The notes below the pieces were generated by a model, which was not told the origin of the DNA, did no database searches, and saw only the letters and a list, made by a program, of their open reading frames with translations. From an uncultured Gammaproteobacteria bacterium (GTDB lineage Bacteria; Pseudomonadota; Gammaproteobacteria; UBA9214), in assembly GCA_963827755.1 (NCBI GenBank), contig CAWHCQ010000040.1, positions 39,716 through 103,715 on the forward strand: a stretch of 64,000 nt of DNA, given 5' to 3'. This document shows positions 2,768 through 61,658 of this stretch, in pieces (within the stretch, counting starts at the first letter, position 1; each line of letters starts with the position of its first letter). The translations under genes were made by a program, and so were the position numbers.

Positions 2768-3280
2768 ATGCAGGTACAAACCACCCCGGAAGACCACCGA
2801 ATCGCCTGGCTTACGGCGCTGGCGATCAGCATTCACCTGCTGGAAAGCGCCTTTCCCTCGCCGTTGCCCGGCTTCAAGCCGGGACTCGCCAATGTCATTA
2901 CCATTGTTGTCCTGATCCAGTTTGGCTGGCGGACCGCCGCCTGGGTGAGCCTGTTGCGGGTGCTGTGCGGCAGCCTGATACTGGGCACCTTTCTCACGCC
3001 CGGCTTTCTCCTCAGCCTCGGCGGCGCCGTCTGCAGCCTCGCGGTCCTCTGGCTCGGCAGCCGTCTGCCCGGCGAGGGCTTTGGCCCGGTCGGTTACAGC
3101 GTGCTGGCGGCGCTGGCTCACATGACCGGGCAATTTACGATTGCATGGCTGCTGTTTGTCCCGCACCCGGCATTGTGGCGCCTGTTTCCGGTTCTGCTGA
3201 CAGCGGCACTGCTGTTTGGATGCTTTAGCGGTATAATTGCCCGTGCAATGTGTCGCCGCCGGTTATTATGCAAAACGTAA
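2768..3280 (+). CDS. Gx transporter family membrane protein
   Basis: LESAFPSPLPGFKPGLAN motif, hydrophobic protein. Confidence 0.75.
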   Translation: MQVQTTPEDHRIAWLTALAISIHLLESAFPSPLPGFKPGLANVITIVVLIQFGWRTAAWVSLLRVLCGSLILGTFLTPGFLLSLGGAVCSLAVLWLGSRLPGEGFGPVGYSVLAALAHMTGQFTIAWLLFVPHPALWRLFPVLLTAALLFGCFSGIIARAMCRRRLLCKT

Positions 3281-4125
3281 ATACCCCCTTGCTGGAAGAG
3301 TCGACTGTAACAGCCACCGACCGCCTGGCGCTGACCCTGTTTTTTGCACTGGTCATCCACGCCATGATTATCCTGGGAATAACCTTCGGCACGCATGAAA
3401 ACCCGCCACCCCGGCATGAGCTGCCGACGCTGGATATCACCATCTCCACGCGCAACACACCACCGCCGGAGGAAGCCGATTACCTCGCGCAAACCAGCCA
3501 GGATGGCGGCGGCAACGTCAGCGAAAAAATTAAACCGACCATGGCTATTCCGGAGATGGCGCCGAATATCGCTCCGCAACAACCCGTATATGTGCCCACG
3601 CAGATCATCACCGCGCAGGAAGCCGCGATCGAGGTCATCCAGGAACAGCAGGAAATACCTGAAATAGAAGAACCGGACATTACAGCCACCGAGCTGATCG
3701 AGCGCAGCATGGAAATGATCAACCTGAGCGAACAAATCAGCCAGTCAATGCAGGCCTATGCACAACGTCCAAGGCAGGATTTTGTATCGGCCCGCACCCA
3801 GGAATACAAGTACGCGAATTACATGAGCGAGTGGGTGAAGAAAGTTGAACGTGTCGGCAACCTCAACTACCCGGATGCCGCGAGACGCAAGAATATCTCC
3901 GGAAGCCTGATGATGGACGTGGCCCTGAATACCGACGGCACGGTACATGAAATCAACATTCTGCGTCCATCCGGTGAACCCATCATTGACGAGGCTGCCA
4001 AGCGGATCGTCAGGATGGCTGCGCCCTATGCACCGTTTCCACCCGAAATCCTTGAAAATACCGACATCCTGCACATAACGCGCACATGGGAGTTTTCGTC
4101 ATCCAACCAGTTGAGCAGCCGTTAA
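3268..4125 (+). CDS. Energy transducer TonB-like protein
   Basis: N-terminal TM, Pro/Glu-rich linker, C-terminal LNYPDAARR...AAPYAPFP...ITRTWEF; usual position upstream of yqgE. Confidence 0.85.
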   Translation: MQNVNTPLLEESTVTATDRLALTLFFALVIHAMIILGITFGTHENPPPRHELPTLDITISTRNTPPPEEADYLAQTSQDGGGNVSEKIKPTMAIPEMAPNIAPQQPVYVPTQIITAQEAAIEVIQEQQEIPEIEEPDITATELIERSMEMINLSEQISQSMQAYAQRPRQDFVSARTQEYKYANYMSEWVKKVERVGNLNYPDAARRKNISGSLMMDVALNTDGTVHEINILRPSGEPIIDEAAKRIVRMAAPYAPFPPEILENTDILHITRTWEFSSSNQLSSR

Positions 4126-20091: not shown

Positions 20092-22758
20092 CTAGAACGG
20101 CAAATCGAGACCGGTGTCAACCTGCTGAATGACGCGCCTGAATTCACCCATGATGCGCATCAGGGCCGCATCATTGTCGGCCTCGAATCGCAACACCAGT
20201 ACCGGCGTTGTATTGGATGCACGGATCAGGCCCCAACCATCATCAAAATCAGCACGCAACCCATCGATCGTGGAGACCGTGGCATCACCAAAATGTGCCG
20301 TCTCCAGCAGCTTGTTCATAAACACCGGCGGTTCACCTTCCTGCATCTGCACATTCAGTTCAGGCGTGTTGATGCTGTCCGGCAGGCCGGCAAATACTTC
20401 AGCAGAGGGACGCTTGTCCTTGCCCAGTATTTCCAGCAGGCGTGCGCCCGCATAGAGGGCATCATCAAAACCAAACCAGCGTTCACTGATAAAGATATGG
20501 CCACTCATCTCACCCGCCAGCAGTGCGCCGGTTTCCTTGATCTTTGCCTTGATAAAGGAGTGCCCGGTCTTCCACATCAGTGGCTTGCCGCCGTGCTCAC
20601 GTATCATCTTGTCGAGATGGCGGGTACATTTAACATCGTAGATGATCTGGGCGCCGGGATTCCGCGTGAGGATATCCAGGGCATACAGCATGAGGACACG
20701 GTCCGGCCAGATAATATCGCCCCCGGAGGAAACCACCCCGAGACGATCGCCATCACCGTCAAAGGCGAGGCCAAGATCCGCCTGGTTCGCGGCAACCGCC
20801 TTGATCAGGTCCTTCAGGTTCTCGGGCTTGCTCGGATCCGGGTGGTGGTTCGGGAAGTTGCCATCCACCTCACAGAAAAGTTCGATCACCGTGCAGCCAA
20901 GCTTTTTCAGCAGTTGCGGTAGAACACCGCCCGCAACCCCGTTGCCGCAGTCAACCACCACCTTGAGTGGCCTGGAAACAGCCACGTCTTTGCAAATACG
21001 TTCGATATAAGCGGGAACGATATCACGCGCATTCACCCGGCCCTGGCCGGAAATGAAGTTTTTCGCCTCGATACGCTCGCGTAACTGCTGGATGGACTGA
21101 CCCGAGAGGGTCTCACCATCAATCATTATTTTCAGACCATTGTAATCCGGTGGATTGTGACTGCCGGTCACGATAACACCGCTATGGGTATCCAGGCTGT
21201 GCGTTGCAAAGTACAGGACCGGCGTGGGTACGCAACCGACATCCGTCACATTACAGCCCGTACTTGTAATACCTTCTGTCAGGGCCTCGGCAAGCTTGCG
21301 GCCCGACAAGCGGCCATCACGACCAACAACGATCGTATCCCGCCCCCGCTGCAGGGCTTCACTGCCAATGGCCCGGCCGATCAGTTTGACAGCCGCGACC
21401 GTCAGCGTCTGATCGACGATTCCACGAATGTCATAGGCCCTGAATATTGACGCATCAATACCGGTGTTTTCGTGGGTAGCGGGTGTATTATCCAGCGGAA
21501 CTTCCTCCACAATCAGATTATCACTCGGTATGGCGGAATCATATTTTGCCGCCACCCCTTCTTTCATATCCGGCACCCTGGTTTCTTCTTCGGCGGGCCA
21601 TTCCTGCGAGGCTGCCCGGGTGTCATTCGCTGCATCCCTTTCCCGAGGTGCAGCGTTGCCCGACTTATGGACAATTCCGCCGCCGGCAAGCTGGGTCATG
21701 AACTCGATCGAGGCACGCATCTCGACCAGGCCAACGGGGTATTCACGCCGCACGCGCCCGTCGCGGTAATCCTTGATCAGGGTTGCCATGCTGGCCTGAT
21801 CCAGGCGCAGCGCGGCATTGAGCCGGCGAAACAATACCATGATCAGGGCAATAATAGCCGTCGCCGATGACAGAAATGCAGCCAGCACCCAGATACTCAG
21901 GCTGTCCAGGTACATCAGGCTGCTCATGGCCGGCCAGTAGGCAACCTGCCAGCGGCTGTCCCCGATCTTCAAGACCCGTTCTGCAGCGCCACTATTGAGG
22001 GCCGCGTCACCTGAAGATGCAACCTTTATCTGCGAACCCTGGACACCGGACTGCTGCAACTCGATATAGCCATTGAGCTCCGGCAGATTATCGAGGATAT
22101 CCTGTAAAATGTTATTCGCTAACGACAGCATGATATGCCCGACGACACCGCTTCCCGCCGGGTCCATTACCCGGCGCACAATATTCACATGCTGCTGCGG
22201 TGAATTCACCAGGTGAACCTCGATCGGCGGCACCTTTTTACCCTGTTCTGCGGCACGAAGCTGGGTCAGCGCCGCATAACTGAGCGGCGGTGAAGCCTGC
22301 AAGTCGATCGTCTCGATACCCGGCAGCAACAGGCGCAAATTAATCGCATCCGGGTAAGCGTAACGCAGTGATTCTTCTCTTGCCTGTAATGCGCCCCGGG
22401 TGCCACTCATGAGCAATTCGGCAAGGCCGGGGTCTTTGGCCAGCATCGATACACTTGCGCCATAGTGATCCACCACAGCAGAGACGCGCGCTGCCACCTG
22501 TTCCGTAACCAGGCTGGCTTCATTTTCAATTGCGCGCGTAATCGTCCCGGACATCAGCTGGAAACAGAACGCGGCAAGCACACCCAGTAATAACACGGCC
22601 GCAAGCAGGAGTTGCATGCGGACCCTGGCAAGGCTGGCGGTCTTGCTGCCACCCGCCAGTTGCGGTAGCGGCGTTGAGGCCGGTGTGCCGTCTTCTTTCT
22701 TCCTGCCCCTGAAGAAGCCAGGAAGTATAGATTTGCTTGTAATATCAGCTACGCCCAT
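20092..22758 (-). CDS. algC: Phosphomannomutase/phosphoglucomutase with long membrane-anchored N-terminal extension
   Basis: C-terminal half IFRAYDIRG, VTGSHNP, FDGDGDR, GEMSGH; lies between dut and argB. Confidence 0.92.
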   Translation of the reverse strand: MGVADITSKSILPGFFRGRKKEDGTPASTPLPQLAGGSKTASLARVRMQLLLAAVLLLGVLAAFCFQLMSGTITRAIENEASLVTEQVAARVSAVVDHYGASVSMLAKDPGLAELLMSGTRGALQAREESLRYAYPDAINLRLLLPGIETIDLQASPPLSYAALTQLRAAEQGKKVPPIEVHLVNSPQQHVNIVRRVMDPAGSGVVGHIMLSLANNILQDILDNLPELNGYIELQQSGVQGSQIKVASSGDAALNSGAAERVLKIGDSRWQVAYWPAMSSLMYLDSLSIWVLAAFLSSATAIIALIMVLFRRLNAALRLDQASMATLIKDYRDGRVRREYPVGLVEMRASIEFMTQLAGGGIVHKSGNAAPRERDAANDTRAASQEWPAEEETRVPDMKEGVAAKYDSAIPSDNLIVEEVPLDNTPATHENTGIDASIFRAYDIRGIVDQTLTVAAVKLIGRAIGSEALQRGRDTIVVGRDGRLSGRKLAEALTEGITSTGCNVTDVGCVPTPVLYFATHSLDTHSGVIVTGSHNPPDYNGLKIMIDGETLSGQSIQQLRERIEAKNFISGQGRVNARDIVPAYIERICKDVAVSRPLKVVVDCGNGVAGGVLPQLLKKLGCTVIELFCEVDGNFPNHHPDPSKPENLKDLIKAVAANQADLGLAFDGDGDRLGVVSSGGDIIWPDRVLMLYALDILTRNPGAQIIYDVKCTRHLDKMIREHGGKPLMWKTGHSFIKAKIKETGALLAGEMSGHIFISERWFGFDDALYAGARLLEILGKDKRPSAEVFAGLPDSINTPELNVQMQEGEPPVFMNKLLETAHFGDATVSTIDGLRADFDDGWGLIRASNTTPVLVLRFEADNDAALMRIMGEFRRVIQQVDTGLDLPF

Positions 22759-48520: not shown

Positions 48521-49126
48521 CTACGCAAAGCTGTTTTTAATGACCACCTCATCCAGATCCAGCTGACCCGGCCGTGGCCACGCCTCCTTTGTGCCCTTGC
48601 CAATCGCGACGAACATGGCGATCACATGGTCGTCGGGAAGCTGAATCAGCTCGGCAACCTTGTCGAAATCGAAGCCATCCATCGGGCATGAGTCATAGCC
48701 CAGCGCTTTTGCGGCAAGCATCAATGTCTGTGCGACGATGCCGCAGGAGCGCATGGCCTCGTCCCGCTGCACCTGGTCCTTGTCCCGATAGTAGGCATCG
48801 ATCGCCGGCAGCATGAACGCCTGGACATCTTTATGTGCGTTGGCCCAGTAGCGTTCCGGCTGCTTCTCCCATGACTTCAGGTCGGCACACAGCACGATGA
48901 ACAGCGACGTATCCGTCACCTGCGCCTGGTCCCAGGCAACCTCCCTGATCTGTTTTCTCAAATCCGGATCAGAGACCACGACAAAACGCCAGTTTTGTAT
49001 ATTGAACGCCGTTGGAGAAAGTATCGCCAAAGACAGCAACTCATCCACTTCAGCTTCGCTCATGCGGTGGCCTGCATCGAAGTGCTTGATTGCCCGGCGT
49101 GTACGTATTGCATCGACTGTTTTCAT
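48521..49126 (-). CDS. Nitroreductase family protein
   Basis: RRAIKHF, SPTAFNIQNWRF, SCPMDGFD. Confidence 0.92.
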   Translation of the reverse strand: MKTVDAIRTRRAIKHFDAGHRMSEAEVDELLSLAILSPTAFNIQNWRFVVVSDPDLRKQIREVAWDQAQVTDTSLFIVLCADLKSWEKQPERYWANAHKDVQAFMLPAIDAYYRDKDQVQRDEAMRSCGIVAQTLMLAAKALGYDSCPMDGFDFDKVAELIQLPDDHVIAMFVAIGKGTKEAWPRPGQLDLDEVVIKNSFA

Positions 49127-49471
49127 CTACTCTCTCCGTGTTTCTGTAAATAGCACTATAAAGGCTTGGGAATACTTTTTGCACCCGCCTCCCTCAAATC
49201 CAGGGACTGCTGTTATTTCATCGAGACCCGGGACATCGGGTCGGGACATTTGTTTGCCGTAAGGGCCATCATCTTCCTTACCTGGGTTTGCGGCCCCTGA
49301 AGGCATTTGCACACATCACTACCGGCTGCATTCAAATCAGGGCCGGCAAGGACCGGGTGAATAGCAGCGCGACAGCATGGACCTTGCATCGGTACCAATA
49401 CCAAGTATGTTAATCGGCCCCGTTGATGCGGCCGCACCGTGCGCATGCCGCCGCCTGGTACCGGGTTTGCG

Positions 49472-50302
49472 TTATTGCCCGGCCAATGCATTGCCGAGAA
49501 AGCTTTCCAGCCCCTGCACATAGTCCCTGCCGCTGACCATGAAGCCGTCATTGTGCCCGCCGCGCAGTTCGAGAAACTGCTTCGGTTCATTGGCCGCCGC
49601 AAACAGGCGCTTGCCGTTGGCGAACGGAATGATTTCGTCATCGCGGCTGTGCACGATCAATACCGGGCTATGGATATCCGCCAGTTTCTTCCCGGTGTTG
49701 TAGCGGAAGCGGCTCAGCCAGCGCACCGGCAGCCAGGGATAGAGCGTGGCCGCGATGTCGGGCACCGAGGTAAACGCGGACTCCAGGATCACACCGGCAG
49801 CGCGCTGCCGGCTCGCCAGGTCAGCGGCAATCGCCGCGCCGAGCGAGCGGCCGAACAGAATGACCTGCTGCGGCGGAATCCCGCGCTGCGCGACAAGATA
49901 CTCCCAGGCGGCGTCCACATCCCGGTATGTTCCCTGTTCGCCTGGCCGGCCGCTGCTGCGCCCGTAGCCACGGTAGTCGAAGATCAGCACCGCCAGGCCA
50001 AGGTCGTGGAACAGGCGAATGGAGTCGAGCCGGTGGGCGATGTTGCCGGCATTGCCGTGGCAGAACAGCAGCACGCCGCGCGCGTCGCCTGCCGGAACGA
50101 ACCAGGCGTCGAGCTGCTCGCCGTCGCGGGTGGCGAGGGTCAGCGGCTCGAAGTCCAGACCGATATCCGCGGGGGTCGCCACGATCTCGCGGGAGGGCAT
50201 ATCGGGAAAGTAGAGTAGCCCGGGCTGGTAGAAAAACAGTGCAGCGGCGAGTGCGGCATAGCCGACGGCAAAGACGGATACAGCAGACAGGAGCGTGTTC
50301 AT
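49472..50302 (-). CDS. Alpha/beta hydrolase (ABHD-like)
   Basis: HGNAGN, DYRGYG, GRSLG, GGHND. Confidence 0.92.
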   Translation of the reverse strand: MNTLLSAVSVFAVGYAALAAALFFYQPGLLYFPDMPSREIVATPADIGLDFEPLTLATRDGEQLDAWFVPAGDARGVLLFCHGNAGNIAHRLDSIRLFHDLGLAVLIFDYRGYGRSSGRPGEQGTYRDVDAAWEYLVAQRGIPPQQVILFGRSLGAAIAADLASRQRAAGVILESAFTSVPDIAATLYPWLPVRWLSRFRYNTGKKLADIHSPVLIVHSRDDEIIPFANGKRLFAAANEPKQFLELRGGHNDGFMVSGRDYVQGLESFLGNALAGQ

Positions 50303-50371
50303 GGCATCAGTCCTTCAGGCGCGGGTAAACGGTGCGTTTATCATATATCCCCGGCATAAGCCTGTTACAGG

Positions 50372-50665
50372 CTACAGACAGGCGGCCCGCGTGGACAGGC
50401 ATTCGTCACCGCCCATCTCGAAGTCGCGGCAAATCCACGGCCGCTGCGCGTAAATCATGCAGCGCATGGAATCCCGGTCCAGGGCCGCACACCAGCCATC
50501 GTCCAGTCGCGCCATGGTCCGGCCGCCCCACGCGTCTTCCTGGATGTAATTTTCGGGCACCCCGGTCTCGGTAACAAGCATCACCTCCAGGCGGCAACAG
50601 CAGGCATCGCAGTTTATACAGGTGGTCTCGCTTGCAGACGGGGGGACAGGATCGATGCTCATCAT
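50372..50665 (-). CDS. YkgJ family cysteine cluster protein
   Basis: CINCDACC...CAAL...CMIYAQRPWICRDF. Confidence 0.88.
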   Translation of the reverse strand: MMSIDPVPPSASETTCINCDACCCRLEVMLVTETGVPENYIQEDAWGGRTMARLDDGWCAALDRDSMRCMIYAQRPWICRDFEMGGDECLSTRAACL

Positions 50666-50772
50666 TGACTTTTCATGACCGGTAAAGGCACCCGCTTATA
50701 TCCCGCCGGGTGTATGGCAGAGGATTTTAACGCTGCAGCGCGTACGGCTGACAGCAAGGCCCGGAACTTTTT

Positions 50773-51018
50773 TCAAAAACCGGCACTGAGCACCAGAAAT
50801 ACATAGGGTATCCCCAGGGCGCTGCCGATGGTGACCAGGAACAGGGGCCATGACCAGTCCGTAAAAAAACGGGCCCGCTTCGAGAAACGGGAAACCAGGA
50901 ACAGGACCGACAGCACGACCCAGGCCAGAAGACAGACCTGTATACCCGGGAAACCGATCACCAGGGCGAGGATGGTCCCTGCTATCAGGCCAAGCGATTT
51001 AAGCAGCTTTGCTGTCAT
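50773..51018 (-). CDS. Small membrane hypothetical protein
   Basis: About three hydrophobic segments; fills the gap co-directionally. Confidence 0.55.
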   Translation of the reverse strand: MTAKLLKSLGLIAGTILALVIGFPGIQVCLLAWVVLSVLFLVSRFSKRARFFTDWSWPLFLVTIGSALGIPYVFLVLSAGF

Positions 51019-51069
51019 ATAAAGTTCCGGCTCAGCCTGTTTTCAGGCCCTGACTGCCCCCAAAATAAT

Positions 51070-51130
51070 GGAAATAATGGGGTCAGATCCTGGTTGCATC
51101 TAATATTAGCGGAAACTGGGATCTGACCCC
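51070..51130. repeat. GGGGTCAGATCC...GGATCTGACCCC hairpin, direct-repeat copy 1
   Basis: 12 bp stem 51079-51090 / 51119-51130; repeated at 51658-51711. Confidence 0.85.
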
Positions 51131-51132
51131 TG

Positions 51133-51645
51133 TTATTCTTTCTCAGCCAGATCCTTCAATGCCTTGTTCATTGAATTCAGCATCGGGGGAACACCTTTTT
51201 CCATCTGTCCGCAAAAAACCGGAGCGAGCAAACCACTAAACATCTCTTTGTGCGTCAATCGCGTGCCTGAGTCAGTTTGTTCAAGTTCAAATATCTTGTC
51301 GTTAGTGAAAATAAATCCAGCCAACATGTGAGCACGCCAGTGAAAATAATATGGCTCTTCAAGTTCAGTGATTGCTGGATTATATTTCGGACCATCCTTG
51401 CCTTTCTCTTTACCCGCCATGGTTATACTGAGCGTCGACCCAACAGTGGCTGCACCATGTGATTCATTGATAATCGGGCTCCATTCCTGCCAATTGTCAA
51501 TGTCCGTTATGATGGACCAGACTTTAGATGGCGGCGCTGAAATTTCGATGACGGTTTTAATTTCCTGCACTTTGCTTCCTTCTATCGCAAGGTATATGAG
51601 CCCGGCAAAAACCAGCCCCACGAATATTATTACAGTTTTCTTCAT
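51133..51645 (-). CDS. SRPBCC family protein
   Basis: IEISAPPSKVWSIITD...WQEWSP, MNKALK; low GC. Confidence 0.85.
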   Translation of the reverse strand: MKKTVIIFVGLVFAGLIYLAIEGSKVQEIKTVIEISAPPSKVWSIITDIDNWQEWSPIINESHGAATVGSTLSITMAGKEKGKDGPKYNPAITELEEPYYFHWRAHMLAGFIFTNDKIFELEQTDSGTRLTHKEMFSGLLAPVFCGQMEKGVPPMLNSMNKALKDLAEKE

Positions 51646-51657
51646 AATCTTGACTGC

Positions 51658-51711
51658 GGAAATAATGGGGTCAGATCCTAGTTGCTTCTAATATTAGCGG
51701 AAACTGGGATC
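51658..51711. repeat. Direct-repeat copy 2 (truncated hairpin)
   Basis: 52 of 54 bases identical to 51070-51123. Confidence 0.85.
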
Positions 51712-51753
51712 ATAATTACACCTCAGTGATAGTCTTCATAATCAACAAGGTCA

Positions 51754-51842
51754 GCATAACGATTAGCATAAGGTGCGGACAAAAGCGGAGCTTTTGTTCG
51801 TCCAGTGAGCGAAAGCGAACGTGCTTGATGCGCTTGTTATAC
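51754..51842 (-). other. attC site
   Basis: Minus strand GTATAAC...GTTATGC with internal dyad. Confidence 0.85.
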
Positions 51843-51851
51843 GCTTTTTCA

Positions 51852-52229
51852 TTAATTCTCTACAGGCTGCATTAAATGAACAACTGCACCTGTTGGGTCA
51901 GAAACTGCACATACACGACCAACATCAGGGACATCATGTGGTGGTACTAAAACTTCACCACCAAGTGCTTTTGTTTGTTTTACGCAATCATCAATATCAT
52001 CAACTGCTATATATGAGTGCCAATACGAACCTTTTCCTGGTGTATCCATAGTTGGGTTCATCATGCCTGCAACATCTTCGCCATTCTTTTGAAACAAAGT
52101 GTATGTACCGAATTCACCTGCATCAACTTTTTTCAACTTCCAACCAAATAGCTTACTAAAAAATGTACCACTTGTATCTTGATCGGAGGTTACGAGTTCT
52201 TGCCAAATAAAAGGATTCTGTTCAGACAT
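51852..52229 (-). CDS. VOC/glyoxalase family cassette
   Basis: FIWQEL, FFSKLFGW, WHSYIAVDD, DPTGA. Confidence 0.88.
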   Translation of the reverse strand: MSEQNPFIWQELVTSDQDTSGTFFSKLFGWKLKKVDAGEFGTYTLFQKNGEDVAGMMNPTMDTPGKGSYWHSYIAVDDIDDCVKQTKALGGEVLVPPHDVPDVGRVCAVSDPTGAVVHLMQPVEN

Positions 52230-52252
52230 GAATATTCTCCATTTATTATTGC

Positions 52253-52327
52253 GTATAACGATTGAATTGAGCGGTGCGCGTTAGCGCGTCCGGCCCCGAA
52301 GGGGCGCACTCGAATGACTTGTTAGGG
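52253..52327 (-). other. attC site
   Basis: Minus strand CCCTAAC...GTTATAC. Confidence 0.85.
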
Positions 52328-52330
52328 CTA

Positions 52331-52675
52331 TTACCCTTTAGGTTGAGTAATTGCATGTTTTACTACAGCCTTCAGGTCTTGAAGAGGCAATTGGTCATGG
52401 GGCTTAAAATTAATGCAGCCTTTACCTGTTTTGATTTTTGGATGCTTTTCTTTGAAACCAGCAATATGGTGATATCCACAAGTATAAAGCGAAACGTAGT
52501 TTTTCTGATTTGCCAATGCCACCCATCCATCACCATATTGATAGGTTGGCATTTTGTATTTCATATCGACTCTAACCTTTGGATATAAGCCGACAATTAG
52601 ATTATGTAGTGCATCCATCATCTGTTTCCGATCTTTTGGAACCGATGCAAAATACGTTTCAACAGCTTTATCCAT
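52331..52675 (-). CDS. DUF1801/YdhG-like cassette
   Basis: VETYF, YKMPTY, QKNYVSLY, GKGCINF. Confidence 0.8.
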   Translation of the reverse strand: MDKAVETYFASVPKDRKQMMDALHNLIVGLYPKVRVDMKYKMPTYQYGDGWVALANQKNYVSLYTCGYHHIAGFKEKHPKIKTGKGCINFKPHDQLPLQDLKAVVKHAITQPKG

Positions 52676-52690
52676 CGTCGTATGTATTTT

Positions 52691-52780
52691 CCCTAAGGTT
52701 TGAGCCATGCCGCGCTGCCACTGACATCCCCGCGCAGCGCCACAATACTATCGAGCGTCGGTTCGGACGACTTGATATAT
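52691..52780 (-). other. Degenerate attC site
   Basis: Minus strand ATATAtC...cTTAGGG; each box is one base from the core predicted by the neighbouring cassettes. Confidence 0.65.
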
Positions 52781-52791
52781 GCCGGCATGCA

Positions 52792-53124
52792 CTAAACCTG
52801 CTGAGCAGCTGCTAAAAAATATTTTCTCCATCTACTCCTCTTTCCATCATCAGGGTTATCAAAAAGAGCATACCCCCTTTTTACATGCCCATTAGGAAAA
52901 TACTTTAATGGTTTTGCCTCTCCATTTCTTATCAGCTTTTCGACTTCGTGCTCTGGTAATTTGAACGCCAATCCTACAGGCGACCACGAAGCACAAATTG
53001 CTTTATTGACATAAAGTACCGCACCGCTAAAAAAGTGTTTGGTCTCCATTGGCAACTCAACCTCATCCTTAATATTAAGTTCGGAGATGAGATGAGAGAG
53101 TTTTTCAAGATACTCTTTAGCCAT
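52792..53124 (-). CDS. TfoX N-terminal-like cassette
   Basis: KHFFSGAVLYVN, GLAFKLP, KYFPNG. Confidence 0.65.
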   Translation of the reverse strand: MAKEYLEKLSHLISELNIKDEVELPMETKHFFSGAVLYVNKAICASWSPVGLAFKLPEHEVEKLIRNGEAKPLKYFPNGHVKRGYALFDNPDDGKRSRWRKYFLAAAQQV

Positions 53125-53138
53125 AAACCTTCAGAGGC

Positions 53139-53270
53139 ATATAACGCCAAGTTAAGCGGCGGCCAGTGCGGAGCGCCGTTTGCGCAACAATGACGAAGCC
53201 ATGCGCAATAAGGTACGGAGTACTGGACGTCCGAGTGAGCGCAGCGAACGGCTTGAATACCTTGTTATGC
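53139..53270 (-). other. attC site
   Basis: Minus strand GCATAAC (contains the stop of the upstream gene)...GTTATAT. Confidence 0.85.
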
Positions 53271-53681
53271 GTTTTCATCTTTTGGGCCCACCCAGAACAA
53301 CGGATTATGGGCGATCTCCCACAGGTGTCCATCGAGATCTTTGAAGTAACCACTGTAGCCACCCCAGAACGCCTTCTGGGGCTTTTTAACCAGCGTTGCG
53401 CCAGCCGCCACTGCTTGATCTACAACCTTATTAACCTCTTTTTCCGATTCGACGTTGTGGGCCAGGGTAAATGCTTCAAACCCAATTCCCTCAGCCGAAA
53501 CCTGGGCATCCTCCGCCAATGCTTCGCGCCCGTACAGACCTAGCCAAGTGCCATTCAGCGTGAAGAAGGCCACTTCCGGTGGGGACTCCATTCGAGGCAA
53601 CCCCAGCCCCTTTTCGTAAAAATCGATAGCCGCAGCCAGTTCTCGAACACCGAGAGTGATCATGCTAATTCTTGGCTTCAT
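53265..53681 (-). CDS. VOC/glyoxalase family cassette
   Basis: MKPRISMITLGV, FWGGYSGYFKDLDGHLWEIA. Confidence 0.9.
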   Translation of the reverse strand: MKPRISMITLGVRELAAAIDFYEKGLGLPRMESPPEVAFFTLNGTWLGLYGREALAEDAQVSAEGIGFEAFTLAHNVESEKEVNKVVDQAVAAGATLVKKPQKAFWGGYSGYFKDLDGHLWEIAHNPLFWVGPKDENA

Positions 53682-53703
53682 TACTTGATCGATCCTTTCT
53701 CAC

Positions 53704-53760
53704 GCATAACGTCTAAGCCAGGCAGCGGCGAAGTCGTCTGACTTGGGCGCCTTGTTAGCC
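53704..53760 (-). other. attC site (57 bp)
   Basis: Minus strand GGCTAAC...GTTATGC. Confidence 0.85.
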
Positions 53761-53762
53761 AC

Positions 53763-54020
53763 CTATAACTCGTACTCTTTTACAATAAATGCCGATGACT
53801 TTGAATGATCGATGAAATTCCCTTCATCTGCCAGTAACGCAGCACCCAATTTCCGGCCCTCAGGTGAACTCATGCCCTCAACCAGTGCTTCTTCTGATTC
53901 AAACCATACCTCGGCGACCCCATCATATTCAGGCAACATTCCTCGAGAAGTTTTTAGGCCTTCGTTCAACGGGGTATCCAGTGTGTGTGATTGAACAGTA
54001 TCTTTTTGCGCCCATCGCGA
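53763..54020 (-). pseudogene. 5'-truncated EthD-family cassette
   Basis: Y-VQSHTL...YDGVAEVWF...DEGNFID; N-terminus replaced by an attC half. Confidence 0.7.
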
Positions 54021-54140
54021 GCGCCTTGTTATGCGTCACTTGCCTACCTTTGAAATATTCTTACCTTATTTAGTACTTCTTCCGCGGTTTGAGAATGCTC
54101 TTAGGCACTATTTCCCATGCCCGAGCTTTGGCGCAGCAAC

Positions 54141-54329
54141 CTACAAAGCATCAAATTTCGCCTTCATGTCGGCCATCCATTTCATTCCTTCTTCCCTGGA
54201 CTTGTTTGCATTGTTGGCCATTACGTCCGCATGATCAGACAAATAATGACGCTTCATCTGCTCGAACCATTTATCGAAGGTGTCTGCTGAGATATTCTTA
54301 TCGCACATGTCACAGGAAAGAGTTTTCAT
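54141..54329 (-). CDS. Small cassette protein (DUF1059-like, CxxC plus HxxxxH)
   Basis: GAGGAGG RBS; MKTLSCDMCD...HYLSDH. Confidence 0.65.
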   Translation of the reverse strand: MKTLSCDMCDKNISADTFDKWFEQMKRHYLSDHADVMANNANKSREEGMKWMADMKAKFDAL

Positions 54330-54354
54330 AACTTACCTCCTCAGTTGTTTTGAC

Positions 54355-54415
54355 GCCTAACGCCTCGCATCAGCGGCCCAGCTTTGCTGGGTCCGTCTGC
54401 ATGCGTTTGTTAGCG
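54355..54415 (-). other. attC site
   Basis: Minus strand CGCTAAC...GTTAGGC. Confidence 0.85.
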
Positions 54416-54419
54416 GGCT

Positions 54420-54965
54420 CTACTCCCGCCAATGCTGGAGTTGATTTAAAACATCTGAACACTGAACCCTCCCTTTTTTCATACCGATTACACCGGCCTT
54501 CAATTCGCGAACCATCCAGGCATCTGCGTGCTCCGATGGAATCGGATAAGGAGCTTCAAAGCAAAACTGTCCCGCGGCTTGAAACCCAAACTTCGGATAG
54601 TAACCAGGATGACCCAGCACGAAAACCAAGTCCACACCTGATTCTGCCAAATGTTTCAGACCTTCTCTAATCAATGCACTTCCAATACCCTGGCCTTGAA
54701 AGTCACTTGAAATTGCTAGTGGTGCGAGTATCCGAACTGTGGTTTCTTGATCCTCGGGTAGGATTCGAGCCACTGTGAAAAGAATATGGCCTACCAGCTT
54801 TTCGTCTGTTTCTGCTACTAACGAAAGCAAAGGCTTTGCTGTCTCATCGTCCAGCAAACTATTGACCAGTTCCACAATCTCCTGGCCTTGACTCTGCCCA
54901 AAGGCACTCATGTGGATAGCATCAATTGCAGTACGGTCAGATTCGGTAGCCCTCCTTATATTCAA
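54420..54965 (-). CDS. GNAT acetyltransferase (YhbS-like) cassette
   Basis: VGHILF, LAPLAI, QGQGIGSALI, VLGHPGYYPKFGF; TTG start after attC. Confidence 0.88.
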   Translation of the reverse strand: MNIRRATESDRTAIDAIHMSAFGQSQGQEIVELVNSLLDDETAKPLLSLVAETDEKLVGHILFTVARILPEDQETTVRILAPLAISSDFQGQGIGSALIREGLKHLAESGVDLVFVLGHPGYYPKFGFQAAGQFCFEAPYPIPSEHADAWMVRELKAGVIGMKKGRVQCSDVLNQLQHWRE

Positions 54966-54985
54966 AATGGCCTTCTCGTACAGCC

Positions 54986-55060
54986 TGCTAACGTTTAAAC
55001 TCTGTCGCCGCCGAAGAAGCACCAGCGACGGAGGTGGTCGGCAGGGGTGACTTGATGTGT
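54986..55060 (-). other. attC site with mutated R'' box
   Basis: Minus strand ACACAtC...GTTAGCA. Confidence 0.65.
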
Positions 55061-55489
55061 TTAGCCCTCTGGTGGTGCAAATTTTGCAAAGACCTCCTCA
55101 CCCGTCATTTCCTTGGTCTTATTTCCGAAATAATAGTAAGACGGTTTGGATTCAATAAATATTTGGTGATCGAATACAAATGGTATATCGGTATCGAATA
55201 ACCCAACAGGCATAATGTGTTGGTTGTGCTCCTTTAATCGATAATACAAATGACTTCCGCATTTATTGCAAAAAGCGCGTTCGGCCCACTCGGAAGAATC
55301 GTATACCGAAATATTTTCCTGGCCCTCGAATGAAACATCGGTTCCACAATCTACGGCTAGCAATGGGCCGCCGGTCCACTTTCGGCACATACCACAATGG
55401 CAAGCTCCCACCTCGCTGCTTAAGCTCTTTACCAATATCTTCACAGCACCGCAGAGGCAACTCCCTTTTCCTTCACGCACATCTGTCAT
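55061..55489 (-). CDS. GFA (CENP-V/Mss4-like) family cassette
   Basis: GSCLCGAV, CHCGMCRK, FCNKCGS. Confidence 0.92.
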   Translation of the reverse strand: MTDVREGKGSCLCGAVKILVKSLSSEVGACHCGMCRKWTGGPLLAVDCGTDVSFEGQENISVYDSSEWAERAFCNKCGSHLYYRLKEHNQHIMPVGLFDTDIPFVFDHQIFIESKPSYYYFGNKTKEMTGEEVFAKFAPPEG

Positions 55490-55526
55490 GATTGACTCCG
55501 AAATTCATTAATACTTGTTTACACAT

Positions 55527-55649
55527 ATCGAAAAATTGAATAGCGCCTTCATCATAAAAAGCGGTGCGAGCCTCCACGAAGGAGACCCCGTGCTTTTTTA
55601 CGTTTGCAGTTTCTTTTCTTTTATCCCATTCGAACTCAAGCTCTTTCAT
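55527..55649 (-). pseudogene. Truncated BrnT (DUF497) toxin
   Basis: Manual translation MKELEFEWDKRKETANVKKHGVSFVEARTAFYD; not in the ORF track. Confidence 0.8.
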
Positions 55650-55655
55650 ATGTAC

Positions 55656-55683
55656 ATTGTACTTATGATTATGAAAAAAGCAA
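55656..55683 (-). promoter_or_regulatory. Sigma-70-like promoter of the toxin cassette
   Basis: TTGCTT-16-TACAAT, 6 nt before the ATG. Confidence 0.55.
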
Positions 55684-55843
55684 GATGCTTCTATGGAGCC
55701 GAACAGTGGATTCGACTGATTGCGTAGTAATGTGTATATGTCGGAATCGTCCTATTGTGCGAACGACCGACGCGGCCTAGCATAAAACTCAACATAGCTA
55801 TCTCCGGGCAGGATGCCCTCTCATTACGACATGGAAGGTCTGT

Positions 55844-56403
55844 ATGTTTGATTCAAATCCCCCGGCACCTGATGCCATTGCGCGCTTCTATGATAACTAC
55901 CTGAACTGCCTGCATAAAGCATCCATTCCAGAGAAGCAAAGACGGTGGTATGTAAAGCGTATTGAGGAGTTTATTAAGACCCATTCCGGATGCAAGATCA
56001 AGTCGCTTTCCGACCAGGAAGTGAGCAGATATCTGGAGATGATAGGCCGAAAAAACCGGCTTTCTGGCTGGCAATTTGCTCAGTGTATCGATGCAATACG
56101 GATTCTCTATTGCGAACTACTCTCAACACCAGCTTGCCAGGGCCTGGACTGGGAATACCGGCAAGACTCAGCCAGGCAACTTGATAATAGCCATCCGATG
56201 CCTGTGGCATCAACAAACGGGTGGGCTGCCACACGCTACGCCATTGCTTTGCAACTCACCTGCTGGAAGCGAACTATGATATCCGCACAGTGCAGGAACT
56301 GCTCGGACATGCCCATGTTTCCACGACCATGATCTATACCCATGTACTCAGTCGCCCCGGGGTCGGGGTGTTCAGTCCGCTGGATCAGCCACGCGGCGAA
56401 TAA
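55844..56403 (+). pseudogene. intI: Integron integrase with large internal deletion
   Basis: N-terminal SAM-like domain joined near 56200, out of frame, to [21 protein letters not shown]...[11 protein letters not shown]...TTMIYTHV...SPLD. Confidence 0.88.
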
Positions 56404-56497
56404 CGGGAACATGGACTAAAGATTCAATTAATCCGGGGTAAAGGCATGGTGGAGCGGCGGCGATGAGCTGGTGATCAGGGCGGGATATTTATCCTGC

Positions 56498-56740
56498 TTA
56501 TTTTCTTGTTTCTATATCTGATTCCAGATTCAGTCTTCCATCCTCTTCCAGAATACCTATCTTGCTGCCATCCGCATTCGATATAACTATCACCGGATCT
56601 TCGAATAATGGACGGCGAACATAGGCCAGGCTCCAGCCAAAACCTTCTATTTTGTGTAACGCAACACGCTGGGCATCATTAAGATAATATTTCAGATTAT
56701 CCGGTACAGGTTTGTCGCCTTTCCTTTTTTCTTCGCTCAT
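56498..56740 (-). CDS. Small hypothetical protein, paralog of 9019..9300
   Basis: RKGDKPVPDN, FGWSLAYVRRPLF. Confidence 0.75.
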   Translation of the reverse strand: MSEEKRKGDKPVPDNLKYYLNDAQRVALHKIEGFGWSLAYVRRPLFEDPVIVISNADGSKIGILEEDGRLNLESDIETRK

Positions 56741-56816
56741 GATTGTTTTACAGCCTGGTCCTGTTGATAAATATAATCCAGTCGGCCCGCAAACAGACAA
56801 AGCTGACTGGCCGGTC

Positions 56817-57309
56817 TCATGGCCTGGGTTGCTTTTCCTTCAGCTGCTCGACATGGACGATAAGGGTGTCAACGGTTTCCTTCAACAGATCGAGCTCATC
56901 GACCGTCAGATCATCCAGCTGTTCCAGGTTGTACTCGATCGTCTCGATTATTTTCTTGTGCGGGCGCTGCATGGGGCGCATGAAATAGGTTGCAACAGTG
57001 GCCACGATGGCACCAAAGAACAATACTGAACCAAGCACCATCCATAGTCCGCCTACCAGCTGGCCTGTACCGGATACCGGTGCAAAGGCGATCCCTACTG
57101 TAGAAAATGCGGCAACACCCCAGTACAGGGCATCTCCATAAGCAATCAATAGATGCCCCCTCAACACCCCGCTCTGACAGGTACATGCCGGTAGAAAACA
57201 TCAACCATAGCATTATCAGTAACAGCACCATTTTGACAAATGGCGTGTGTACGGAGACATCTTTAATGAATCTTTTCAGGCGTGCGGGTGGCCTTGCTCT
57301 TTTTGTCAT
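56817..57309 (-). CDS. 2-TM ion channel (KcsA-like fold), +1 frameshift near 57148
   Basis: TM1, YGDALYW pore helix, STVG, TM2, C-terminal coiled coil. Confidence 0.7.
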
Positions 57310-57474
57310 TTTTCGCACTCACATTGAAAAAGGAGACGGCGAGATAATTTCAACAGCTTCATCCCTTTATTAAACCAATCTTACTCCCTCCCCATCGGTA
57401 AAAGATTGCGACCTTTATACCCCCTCTCTCCGGGAGAGGGGATGCTCTATTTGGGTCTACGGGGAGTGTATCGA

Positions 57475-57867
57475 CTAGCCCTGCGCCTCGAAACCAAAGG
57501 CACGGTCGTGCACGTAGACGAGTTTGCAGTCCTCGATATATTTAGCGTCGTGGATTCTTCCGGCCTTGACGTAACCGCTGTCGCCCTTGTTGAGGATGAC
57601 CGGCGCGCCGTCGGCTTCGAGGCCGTTCGCGCCTTTAGTATAGAACTGGATGGCCATTTTGCCTTCAACGACCACCGTCATGTCATCGCCCGGGTGCGAG
57701 TGCGGCGGCTCTTCACTGCCGGCGTCCCACTTCTCCAGCATGACTTCCACGCCATCCTGGTTTCCGGGAAAGGTTGTCCTCAGGGTGAAACCTTCCGGGG
57801 TATCGGGCACGGTAACGTGGTTATCCCAGACCTTGCTGGTTGCTGAAGTCACTTCCTTATTCGACAT
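57475..57867 (-). CDS. Cupin domain protein
   Basis: PHSHPGD...VVVEG...GDSGYVKAGRIH. Confidence 0.85.
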   Translation of the reverse strand: MSNKEVTSATSKVWDNHVTVPDTPEGFTLRTTFPGNQDGVEVMLEKWDAGSEEPPHSHPGDDMTVVVEGKMAIQFYTKGANGLEADGAPVILNKGDSGYVKAGRIHDAKYIEDCKLVYVHDRAFGFEAQG

Positions 57868-57889
57868 GCGTGCTCTCCTGTTCAGATTG

Positions 57890-58768
57890 TTAGGCCAGTA
57901 ACGGCAAGTAATGATCCACCAGCAACAGGGCGAAGATTGCCATCAGGTACCAGATCGAGTAACCGAAGGTGCGCATGGCGACGCTTTCGTCCTCGCCCTT
58001 CATCAGCAGCAGGGCGTAATAGAGAAAACCGCCGCCGAGCAGCAGCGCGCCCGCAAGATAAAACAGTCCGCTCATATGCATGGCAAAAGGCAGTACGCTG
58101 ACAACCAGCAACAGGATGGTATAGAGCAGGATCTGCAGGCGGGTGAACGGCACGCCGTGCGTCACCGGCAGCATCGGGATGTCCACCCTGGCGTATTCCT
58201 CGCGGCGGTGAATGGCGAGCGCCCAGAAGTGCGGCGGCGTCCAGATGAAGATTATCAGGAACAGCAACAGTGCATGCGGGTCGATGGAGTTGGTAACCGC
58301 CACCCAGCCGAGGATCGGCGGTGCGGCACCGGCAGCGCCGCCGATGACGATATTCTGCGGGGTCGCGCGTTTCAGGTACATGGTGTACACCACGGCGTAA
58401 CCCAGCAACGAGAAAAACGTCAGCATGGCGGTCAGGGGGTTGACCAGCACGACCAGCACGACCATGGCCAGCGCACCCAGCAGGACGGCAAACACCATGG
58501 CCTGGCGGGGGCTGATCTCGCCCTGCGGCAGCGGGCGGTCACTGGTACGTTTCATCTTGGCGTCTTCACGCGCATCGAGCACATGGTTGATGGCGGCGGC
58601 CGCAGAGGCCGCCATGCCGATGCCGAGGTTGCCGAACAGCAGCACGTCCCAGGGCACCATGCCGGGTGGCGAGGTCGCCATGAACATACCGACCATGGCG
58701 GTGAATACAATCAGCGCCACGACCTTCAGCTTGCACAGGCCAAGATAACTGTTTACCAGGTTGCGCAT
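57890..58768 (-). CDS. cyoE: Protoheme IX farnesyltransferase (heme O synthase)
   Basis: [35 protein letters not shown]. Confidence 0.96.
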
Positions 58769-61539: not shown

Positions 61540-61658
61540 TGATAACTCCCTCTCTATACAAGTTTATTCGTTAAACGTTTCAACGGGGTCAGACTCGACT
61601 GGTCCGACCTCCATCACAAAACAATCATTTCAATCCGGGACTGATCCCTGCAATAAAA

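Follow-up and report, generated by a model that had tools for sequence, protein, structure and literature searches.

REPIN hairpins at the borders of an integron cassette and in the cassette arrays of an uncultured gammaproteobacterium

The DNA analysed here, henceforth the window, is a stretch of 64,000 nucleotides from an uncultured gammaproteobacterium (G000:C40:39716-103715; the G000 assembly comprises 2.85 Mb in 52 contigs). Over positions ~51050-57400 of the window, the GC content falls from ~0.60 to 0.42-0.50, and this segment is a minus-strand integron cassette array, in which cassettes with attC sites as separators run from a remnant of the integrase gene intI down to 51754, followed by a last cassette that encodes an SRPBCC protein. 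The SRPBCC gene is bordered on both sides by copies of a hairpin sequence. We identify this hairpin as a doublet of repetitive extragenic palindromic (REP) sequences, or REPIN, and analyze its relation to the array. The features at and near the end of the array are as follows.

51052-51058, plus strand: distal TGACTGC heptamer, 12 nt from the repeat, inside a 52-nt segment that a contig of metagenome run X5 skips
51070-51138: distal, complete REPIN, consisting of a 52-nt hairpin (51079-51130) with A/T-rich tails GGAAATAAT and TGTTATTC
51133-51645, minus strand: SRPBCC (Polyketide_cyc2) gene, 170 aa, E = 2e-13, GC 0.44; last cassette, with no attC
51652-51658, plus strand: proximal TGACTGC heptamer (GCAGTCA on the minus strand, 5 nt ahead of the ATG), directly adjoining the proximal copy
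51658-51711: proximal REPIN copy, 21 nt upstream of the SRPBCC start codon, lacking the outer 7 nt of the stem (TGACCCC)
51712-51753, minus strand: 42-nt remainder (stub) of another cassette, with the last attC on one side and the truncated REPIN on the other
61586-61604, plus strand: lone half-site of a sister REP subfamily (D), between ctaE-like and ctaG-like genes

The two copies form a single direct repeat of 54 nt (51070-51123 and 51658-51711; 96% identity, 2 mismatches) around a low-GC gene (0.44 vs. 0.61 in the left flank), as an earlier note on this DNA had described. The distal hairpin has a perfect 12-bp foot (GGGGTCAGATCC/GGATCTGACCCC) and arms of 26 and 26 nt that are 81% complementary; it folds at −15.9 kcal/mol (z = −4.5), and none of 200 shuffles was as good. 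The proximal copy, 7 nt short, folds as it stands no better than shuffles (z = −1.1). The foot 12-mer occurs exactly in three places in the window, compared to 0.28 occurrences expected when up to one mismatch is allowed. Both copies contain the 9-nt GGAAATAAT because the A/T-rich tails belong to the conserved REPIN unit. The TGACTGC heptamer does precede each copy, but one base away from where it had been placed (at 51052 and 51652) and, in the distal case, with 12 extra bases before the repeat. The proximal heptamer could be either the end of the copied REPIN unit at a cleavage site or a part of the cassette's 5' untranslated region (UTR), for which the consensus GGAGTCGAA in homologous cassettes can be compared. 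At its other end, the proximal copy joins the cassette stub inside a minus-strand ATG, the G of which is the last base shared with the repeat, and not one base after this ATG as had been proposed. The degenerate relative noted at about 61585-61612 is indeed related, its GGGTCAGACTCGA being identical over 13 nt to the sister-subfamily foot on contigs C3 and C9 of the same genome, but it is a single half-site with no partner arm (fold z = 0.37).

Three attC covariance models were built, from 2 seeds (R1), from 7 structure-aligned sites (R2) and from 26 sites of G000, of a second genome of the genus (G017) and of other taxa (R3). All three are home-made and narrow; R2 and R3 were run with filters off on both strands. 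A looser attC signature served solely for picking seeds, which the covariance models then confirmed. Over 50500-56000, R2 recovered five attCs at the coordinates set by eye (82.9 to 10.3 bits), and R3, over 49000-58000, recovered the same five (68.1 to 28.6 bits) plus two weaker sites. The sites found in the array, together with the integrase remnant, are listed here.

51017-51048, minus strand: weak attC-like stretch GGCTGAGCCGGAACTTTATAT beyond the distal REPIN (R2 8.9 bits, E = 0.87; R3 11.1 bits, E = 0.39)
51754-51842, minus strand: last attC of the array (R2 33.6 bits; R3 33.3 bits)
52253-52327, minus strand: attC (R3 28.6 bits; R2 13.2 bits)
53139-53270, minus strand: attC (R3 30.6 bits)
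53704-53760, minus strand: attC (R3 48.3 bits)
54355-54415, minus strand: attC (R2 82.9 bits; R3 68.1 bits)
52691-52780 and 54986-55060: two weaker attC sites, found with R3 only
55844-56403, plus strand: intI remnant, with an N-terminal SAM-like part and a C-terminal HTLRH..GH..Y part in different frames and the middle of the protein missing

Over the same ranges and on both strands, the two hairpin copies remained without a match at E ≤ 10 to R2 or R3. Six aligned attCs of the window all share TAACAA...CGTTA; the hairpin lacks inverse core sites R''/R', having ATAACA on just one side and, in place of GTTAT, ATTAT on the other. Among Rfam families, none matched at E ≤ 1 in 50500-52500. The distal copy begins 2 nt past the SRPBCC stop codon on the minus strand, directly 3' of the last cassette's open reading frame (ORF), which is where the attC of this cassette is expected, and is attC-like in position alone. 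The hairpin is not an attC, in agreement with the earlier note, and the outcome that the note had named as refuting its idea, a score as an attC, did not occur. Regular-expression and pairing-based attC detectors proved non-specific (143 matches in the window) or too strict (2/45 vs. 1.1 expected); they were dropped and are not used as evidence. The stretch at 51017-51048 resembles the 3' ends of the neighbouring attCs; the match is non-significant and gives a hint that this could be the 3' remnant of the SRPBCC cassette's own attC.

The N-terminal SAM-like domain of the intI remnant matches PF13495, and the comparison with TIGR02249 covers positions 15-82 of 315 (25.9 bits, cut-off 265). The integron integrase of the window is dead, which leaves the array without an enzyme of its own for rearrangement.

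When the whole genome was searched with the hairpin, related copies turned up on contig C13, where two inverted copies of GGGTCAGATCCCA(A/G)TTTTCCCTAATATA, 738 nt apart, surround an ORF that starts with MPRKPRFQLPGIPQHIVQRGNNR and contains HVHLL. This ORF (C13:5726-6463) encodes a Y1 transposase (Y1_Tnp, PF01797, E = 1.9e-8), and its best NCBIfam match is REP_Tyr_transpos (37.4 bits); by eye, no target duplication was seen beside the pair. Since inverted copies flank a gene resembling those for REP-associated tyrosine transposases (RAYTs), the hairpin is tied to a Y1/HUH enzyme, a connection that had been surmised in the earlier note. G000 holds four Y1 genes altogether. One of these, on contig C3, is an intact RAYT gene (234 aa, 74.7 bits vs. 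NF047646) with inverted copies of the sister motif GGGGTCAGAGTACTTGAA on both sides. Among genomes of the same genus, 20 of 24 contain the motif GGGGTCAGATCCNNGTT with at most one mismatch, compared to 3 of 16 from other genera of the class and none for the reversed control. The copies in the genus are 52-nt hairpins or inverted pairs 740-840 nt apart, and when they are aligned, the tails are seen to be part of the unit, which reads aaaACA, then GGGG...CCCC, then TGTTtt. The family is genus-wide and extragenic; in G000, however, it comprises only 8 half-sites of the window's own type, family A, which are clustered and not dispersed. Thus, the hairpin is a REPIN of a genus-specific REP family tied to a Y1/HUH (RAYT-like) gene.

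Other classifications of the hairpin were considered. A reading of the GGGG foot as a Tn3-type inverted repeat or as the end of a miniature inverted-repeat transposable element (MITE), which would call for inverted repeats of 38 nt or more and a 5-bp target duplication, was dropped, given that the gene inside the inverted pair on C13 codes for a Y1 and not for a DDE transposase. An IS200/IS605 element with a passenger gene, for which a tnpA, different subterminal hairpins at left and right and insertion 3' of a fixed tetra- or pentanucleotide would be typical, does not fit either, as no tnpA lies between the repeats and one palindrome, in direct order, makes up both ends. It also appears highly improbable that the hairpins are immobile, as bidirectional terminators or regulatory palindromes that are similar by chance. 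They do adjoin stop codons, and a strong stem is followed by T-rich tails; however, inverted copies flank RAYT genes, near-identical copies occupy non-orthologous places in 20 of the 24 genus genomes, and a consensus terminator scan does not call the hairpins (its rule allows loops of 3-8 only, and the REPIN loop is too long).

Two observations concern the other Y1 genes and their surroundings. The Y1 gene on contig C17 (C17:34152-34655, L038) lies amid many classical GTAG-tagged REPs (GTAGGAGCGGATCTAATCCGCGAT), a separate REP family in the same genome. A tandem duplication at C3:16790-16990 (L037) comprises the final ~94 nt of the intact RAYT gene and the REP downstream of it, of subfamily C.

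Relatives of the SRPBCC gene were found in 18 loci of species genomes, with identities of 83% in a metagenome-assembled genome (MAG) of Methylococcales, 76-78% in MAGs of Ectothiorhodospiraceae and Methylophaga, and down to 54-62% in MAGs of Bacteriovoracaceae, Nitrospinales and Cytophagales. A further 35 loci on metagenome contigs reach 87% at best. In the flanks of the relatives from both sources, attC sequences were seen by eye. When 52 sources, namely 51 loci from other taxa and the locus of G017 (L032), were searched with R3 at E ≤ 0.05, 33 attC matches were obtained, all on the strand of the gene, in 13 of the 51 other-taxon loci; L032 had none. The distance from the stop codon to the start of an attC is −3 to +31 nt in six loci (L046, L047, L052, L075, L078 and L083); upstream of the gene, 8 loci have an attC within 90 nt, and in 4 loci attCs are present on both sides. 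A TCAGA-footed hairpin occurs in none of the 51. Therefore, the SRPBCC gene, attC-bounded elsewhere and there devoid of such hairpins, is a common integron cassette to which the hairpins were added locally.

The borders of the gene agree with this. Nucleotide homology to the attC-borne copies spans the ORF and ends at its borders, and 33 of 35 homologues terminate in E(K/Q/R)-stop at one common codon. The window reads GAGAAA-GAA-TAA-CA and then GGGG, that is, one extra codon followed by the REPIN; the stop codon of the G017 copy is likewise displaced by one codon, again followed by a hairpin. PMC3733652 reports cases in which a REP terminus provides the stop codon and others in which a REP has inserted into another palindrome. 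In the window, the SRPBCC cassette has lost its attC, the place of which is taken by a REPIN. The earlier note had proposed a gene-capture system that is independent of the integron integrase IntI and feeds integron arrays, which finds no support here. The standard attC-bounded form of the cassette in other taxa implies that the integron route explains the capture of the gene, and since the hairpins are resident, genus-specific REPs that occur near stop codons, the direction appears to be the reverse: REPINs entered the array and displaced an attC.

Some further observations on the SRPBCC gene and its relatives may be recorded here. The protein gives a faint NCBIfam match to the model of Rv0910-family toxins (24.5 bits, cut-off 100), and its N-terminal hydrophobic stretch looks like a signal or membrane anchor. 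Loci L046 and L047, 2.2 Mb apart in one Methylococcales MAG, carry the same SRPBCC cassette twice, with ~150 nt of identical flanks and each inside an attC array.

A census of the whole G000 assembly yielded 21 hairpins with G(G/T)CAGA feet that fall into four subfamilies, with the feet GGGGTCAGATCC (A), GGTGTCAGAGCAC (B), GGGGTCAGAGTAC (C) and GGGTCAGACTCGATTGAT (D). Positions relative to ORFs, which were called by a greedy, heuristic procedure, were compared for 22 sites, namely 20 census hairpins, the truncated copy of the window and a short hairpin at C3:24645; a hairpin on contig C14 with no subfamily foot was left out. All but one of the 22 lie outside ORFs, 8 of them within 10 nt of the 3' end of a gene, and many of the adjacent genes have a GC content of 0.43-0.49. 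Half-sites with at most one mismatch number 68 (A, 8; B, 48; C, 5; D, 7), and 48 of these are located on contigs C9 (30) and C3 (18), which make up 5% of the assembly and both hold cassette arrays.

In these two further minus-strand arrays (C9:~93000-118463 and C3:~20100-21000; L099-L101), attCs and REP hairpins alternate at the junctions. The models identified attCs at C9:96231, 107307, 107811, 109109, 116005 and 116775 and at C3:20201, and a further one, at C3:20798-20884, was recognized by signature only. According to the ORF map, the junctions of the C9 array consist of ~5 with an attC alone, ~5 with a REP alone and 3 with a REP plus a whole or partial attC. At C9:102046, as judged by eye, a REP-B follows ~35 nt of the 5' part of an attC; at C9:97094, again by eye, a REP-D occupies the place of the 5' half of an attC, the 3' half of which is intact (a weak attC match of 15.9 bits, E = 0.083); and the end of a REP-B at C9:109209 is separated from an attC by 5 nt. 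On C3, a toxin-antitoxin cassette has REP-D hairpins (C3:20130 and C3:20901) at 10 and 14 nt beyond its two attCs, so that the order is REP-D, attC, two genes, attC, REP-D. In G017, an array on that genome's own contig C13 has a REP-B hairpin between two cassettes where an attC is expected. Within G000, REP hairpins are concentrated in the arrays, where some of them lie within attCs or next to them. With R2, a REP-C hairpin (C3:12589-12669) reached 11.3 bits, a non-significant score (E = 1.9). A third, short palindrome, GTAGGGTCGAATTCATTCGACC, recurs beside REP-B hairpins (C9 near 102040 and 109270; C8 near 15900).

The junctions of the window were also compared with contigs from 24 runs, all sediment or marine metagenomes, at an identity of at least 90%; the best share covered was 0.29, and the uncovered parts are not interpreted. 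A 151-nt contig of run X3 agrees with 51607-51711 at every position and ends in 46 letters that are not those of the stub. In run X1, a 214-nt contig covers 51710-51888, preceded by 36 letters that are not those of the REPIN. Contigs of runs X2 and X5 carry the SRPBCC gene from 51134 and diverge at the stop codon. Among the pieces listed, no contig bridges 51711. A contig of X5 joins 51019 to 51072 and is devoid of the 52 nt that hold the distal TGACTGC; this joint confirms that an 81-aa gene is linked with the distal REPIN in a relative.

Taken together, these observations are best accounted for, with a probability that we put at roughly 0.7, by REPINs of a RAYT-linked family that came to lie at both borders of an ordinary integron cassette, one of them replacing its attC, in a decaying array. 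We infer the order of events and the acting enzyme as follows. The SRPBCC cassette would have been the last one of a sedentary array, the integrase of which is now a remnant. The REPIN unit, comprising the hairpin and its tails and perhaps extending to the cut site, would have been copied to both borders by a RAYT acting on folded single-stranded DNA; the distal copy would have replaced the attC of the cassette from the stop codon or the R'' box onwards, and the proximal copy would have entered the 5' UTR. A later deletion or illegitimate join may then have removed the outer 7 nt of the proximal copy together with most of the preceding cassette, of which the 42-nt stub would be left. A simple way to arrive at a REP in place of an attC would be recombination between REPs located before and after the attC, an arrangement present on C3, which would delete the attC and produce the order ORF-REP-ORF. 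Their common location at junctions of one co-oriented array, and not a role as ends of a capture device, accounts for the direct orientation of the two copies in the window. A candidate origin of the 42-nt stub as the 5' UTR of the SRPBCC cassette was ruled out, as blastn-short against 36 homologous loci returned chance matches of 10-11 nt only.

Several points weigh against this interpretation. Within arrays, nearly all non-coding DNA is attC, so that adjacency of REPs and attCs is expected to some degree, and in two other genomes, G002 and G008, REP clusters lie far from the attCs found with R2 among the matches listed; a targeting of attCs by REPs is not established. Beside the distal copy, no significant attC remnant was found (E = 0.39-0.87). 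The family consensus, aaaACA followed by GGGGTCAGATCC, does not carry the GTAG tag of the biochemically studied REPs. Both RAYTs score below the curated NCBIfam cut-off (74.7 and 37.4 vs. 80 bits), and the RAYT on C13, that of family A, has lost ~40 internal codons and changed frame in comparison with its intact orthologue in G010 (65% identity). The C13 RAYT is probably defunct, judging from its sequence, which makes recent transposition by this enzyme doubtful. The junction at 51711/51712 is known from this MAG alone; the X1 and X3 contigs fit a derived junction at this point and equally allow a chimeric join in the assembly. Finally, a 7-nt flank is common to both copies, as would also be expected of a recombinational duplication instead of two insertions.

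Such a duplication, that is, origin of the direct repeat by homologous, RecA-type recombination, either as a tandem duplication with partial loss or by integration of a circle of REPIN and gene into a resident REPIN, is possible although we regard it as unlikely. The shared stretch amounts to ~68 nt, extending past the hairpin to the 9-nt tail and to TGACTGC; the similarity of the proximal heptamer to the 5' UTR of homologous cassettes suggests that cassette sequence was copied along with the REPIN; and there are only three family-A sites in the genome, two of which are here. However, 54-68 nt is short for efficient homologous recombination. The distal copy is also interrupted by a 12-nt insertion, and a related strain in run X5 lacks the 52 nt with the distal heptamer. 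On the minus strand, moreover, the heptamer (GCAGTCA) ends in CA, one of the dinucleotides that a TnpA-REP was shown to cut in PMC8266576, so that the heptamer may simply be the end of a copied unit.

The second occurrence of the SRPBCC gene in the genus bears on a different possibility, namely that paired REPINs are the two ends of a Y1-transposase substrate and that the enclosed gene moves as a unit, independently of IntI. Among the genomes of the genus, the gene was found in one other, G017, at 79% identity. There, it has higher-GC genes on either side, no attC could be detected within 19 kb (filters off), and it is tightly bracketed by a subfamily-C hairpin that ends 30 nt before the ATG and a GGGGGCAGATC-type hairpin that starts 5 nt after the stop codon. 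The window gene is closer to an attC-borne copy (87%) than to the G017 copy (79%); therefore, the gene was probably acquired on two separate occasions, each of which led to REP-type hairpins at the borders of the ORF. A bracketing that probably arose twice, the location in G017 outside any detectable attC array, and the tails and 7-nt flank shared by the direct repeats of the window are all compatible with mobilization of the unit. So are other REP-bracketed modules, at C9:111208/112195 (two low-GC genes) and C3:20130/20901 (the toxin-antitoxin cassette with its attCs), and the breaks of other-sample contigs at module borders.

Nevertheless, we consider mobilization of this kind quite unlikely. 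The hairpins that flank the G017 gene belong to different subfamilies, so that there is no duplicated site. No identical REPIN-bracketed module was seen at two loci, and a search for an empty site at the G017 locus, where an exonuclease neighbour has orthologues in 4 other genomes and the upstream contexts differ, found none. REPs of this superfamily abut stop codons genome-wide, the module contains no transposase, and the cognate RAYT looks broken. One end is truncated within the stem, whereas the Y1 cleavage reported in PMC8266576 is 5' or 3' of the REP. Contigs, for their part, break at repeats for assembly reasons alone. A combined scenario, in which REPINs home to the folded single-stranded DNA of cassette junctions and turn attC-bounded into REPIN-bounded cassettes, which Y1 enzymes or recombination would then relocate to chromosomal sites such as that of the G017 SRPBCC gene, is speculative, and we likewise give it little credence.

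Further observations concern the margins of the window's array. The CxxCxxCC gene that borders the array (50372-50665) is an attC-bounded cassette in G017 (L033, G017:C13:196000-204000, positions 3195-3485), which implies that the array may once have reached further left than the drop in GC content suggests. No other gene of the left flank shows conservation at the DNA level, which for the CxxCxxCC gene extends to 9 of 36 genomes of the genus; in G041, the neighbourhood bears no relation to the left flank. At the opposite end, the first cassette after the integrase remnant (55500-55700, minus strand) begins with MKELEFEWDKRKETANVKKHGVSF and looks like a truncated small toxin of a toxin-antitoxin pair.

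In the usual pictures, REPINs are dispersed, vertically inherited extragenic passengers, and integron arrays are punctuated by attC alone. Full-text literature searches, which covered main texts, returned no paper on REP or REPIN elements in integron arrays; two papers with both attC and RAYT terms, among them PMC3733652, do not deal with this topic. As far as these searches show, REPINs that colonise cassette arrays and stand in for attC are an unreported pattern. If general, this pattern would provide a way for sedentary arrays to decay, with cassettes locked in place by loss of the site on which IntI acts, and would explain attC-less "cassettes" that automated integron finders miss. It also places two systems that use folded single-stranded DNA, IntI/attC and RAYT/REP, within a few kilobases of each other, where cross-talk between them is testable. 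Should homing and relocation hold true, cassettes would have a second, IntI-independent afterlife and a route to fixation. For annotation, the case advises caution: hairpin-flanked genes at the ends of arrays are not to be taken for a new capture system.

Among known systems, the closest analogies for a bracketing of cassettes independent of IntI are MITE-bracketed integrons, or integron mobilization units, with transposase-type inverted repeats and target duplications, and the pdif (Xer) modules of Acinetobacter plasmids, with XerC/D sites. The module described here resembles both in that genes are bracketed by short repeats and possibly moved independently of IntI; unlike in those systems, the REPINs follow each other in direct order, target duplications are absent, and nothing indicates that the unit has moved. 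The closest analogies for mobile DNA settling at attC sites, IS1111-attC insertion sequences and group IIC-attC introns, are autonomous elements that home to a defined position of attC. They share with the REPINs the property of mobile DNA that gathers at or in the attC sites of arrays and can cripple them, whereas the elements here are non-autonomous hairpins of ~70 nt for which targeting of attC is not demonstrated. The attC itself is, like the REPIN, a hairpin-forming element (50-130 nt) that directly follows the cassette ORF, is acted on as folded single-stranded DNA and recurs every one or two genes in a co-oriented array; the REPIN, however, has no R''/R' core (TAAC..GTTA), no extrahelical bases and no unpaired spacer, and is linked to Y1 enzymes, not to IntI.

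The closest match is with REPIN-RAYT systems, in which REP doublets form hairpins and are accompanied by a RAYT (PMC3116915 and PMC3337134), and with the REPtrons and TnpA-REP of PMC8266576. The similarities include a Y1/HUH gene between inverted REPs, hairpin doublets with conserved feet, extragenic location, lineage-specific families, and several families and RAYTs per genome. The differences are that the GTAG tag (of the studied groups 2 and 3) is absent, that copy number is low, with 8 family-A half-sites, and that the copies are not dispersed but concentrated in integron cassette arrays, some of them at the positions of attC.

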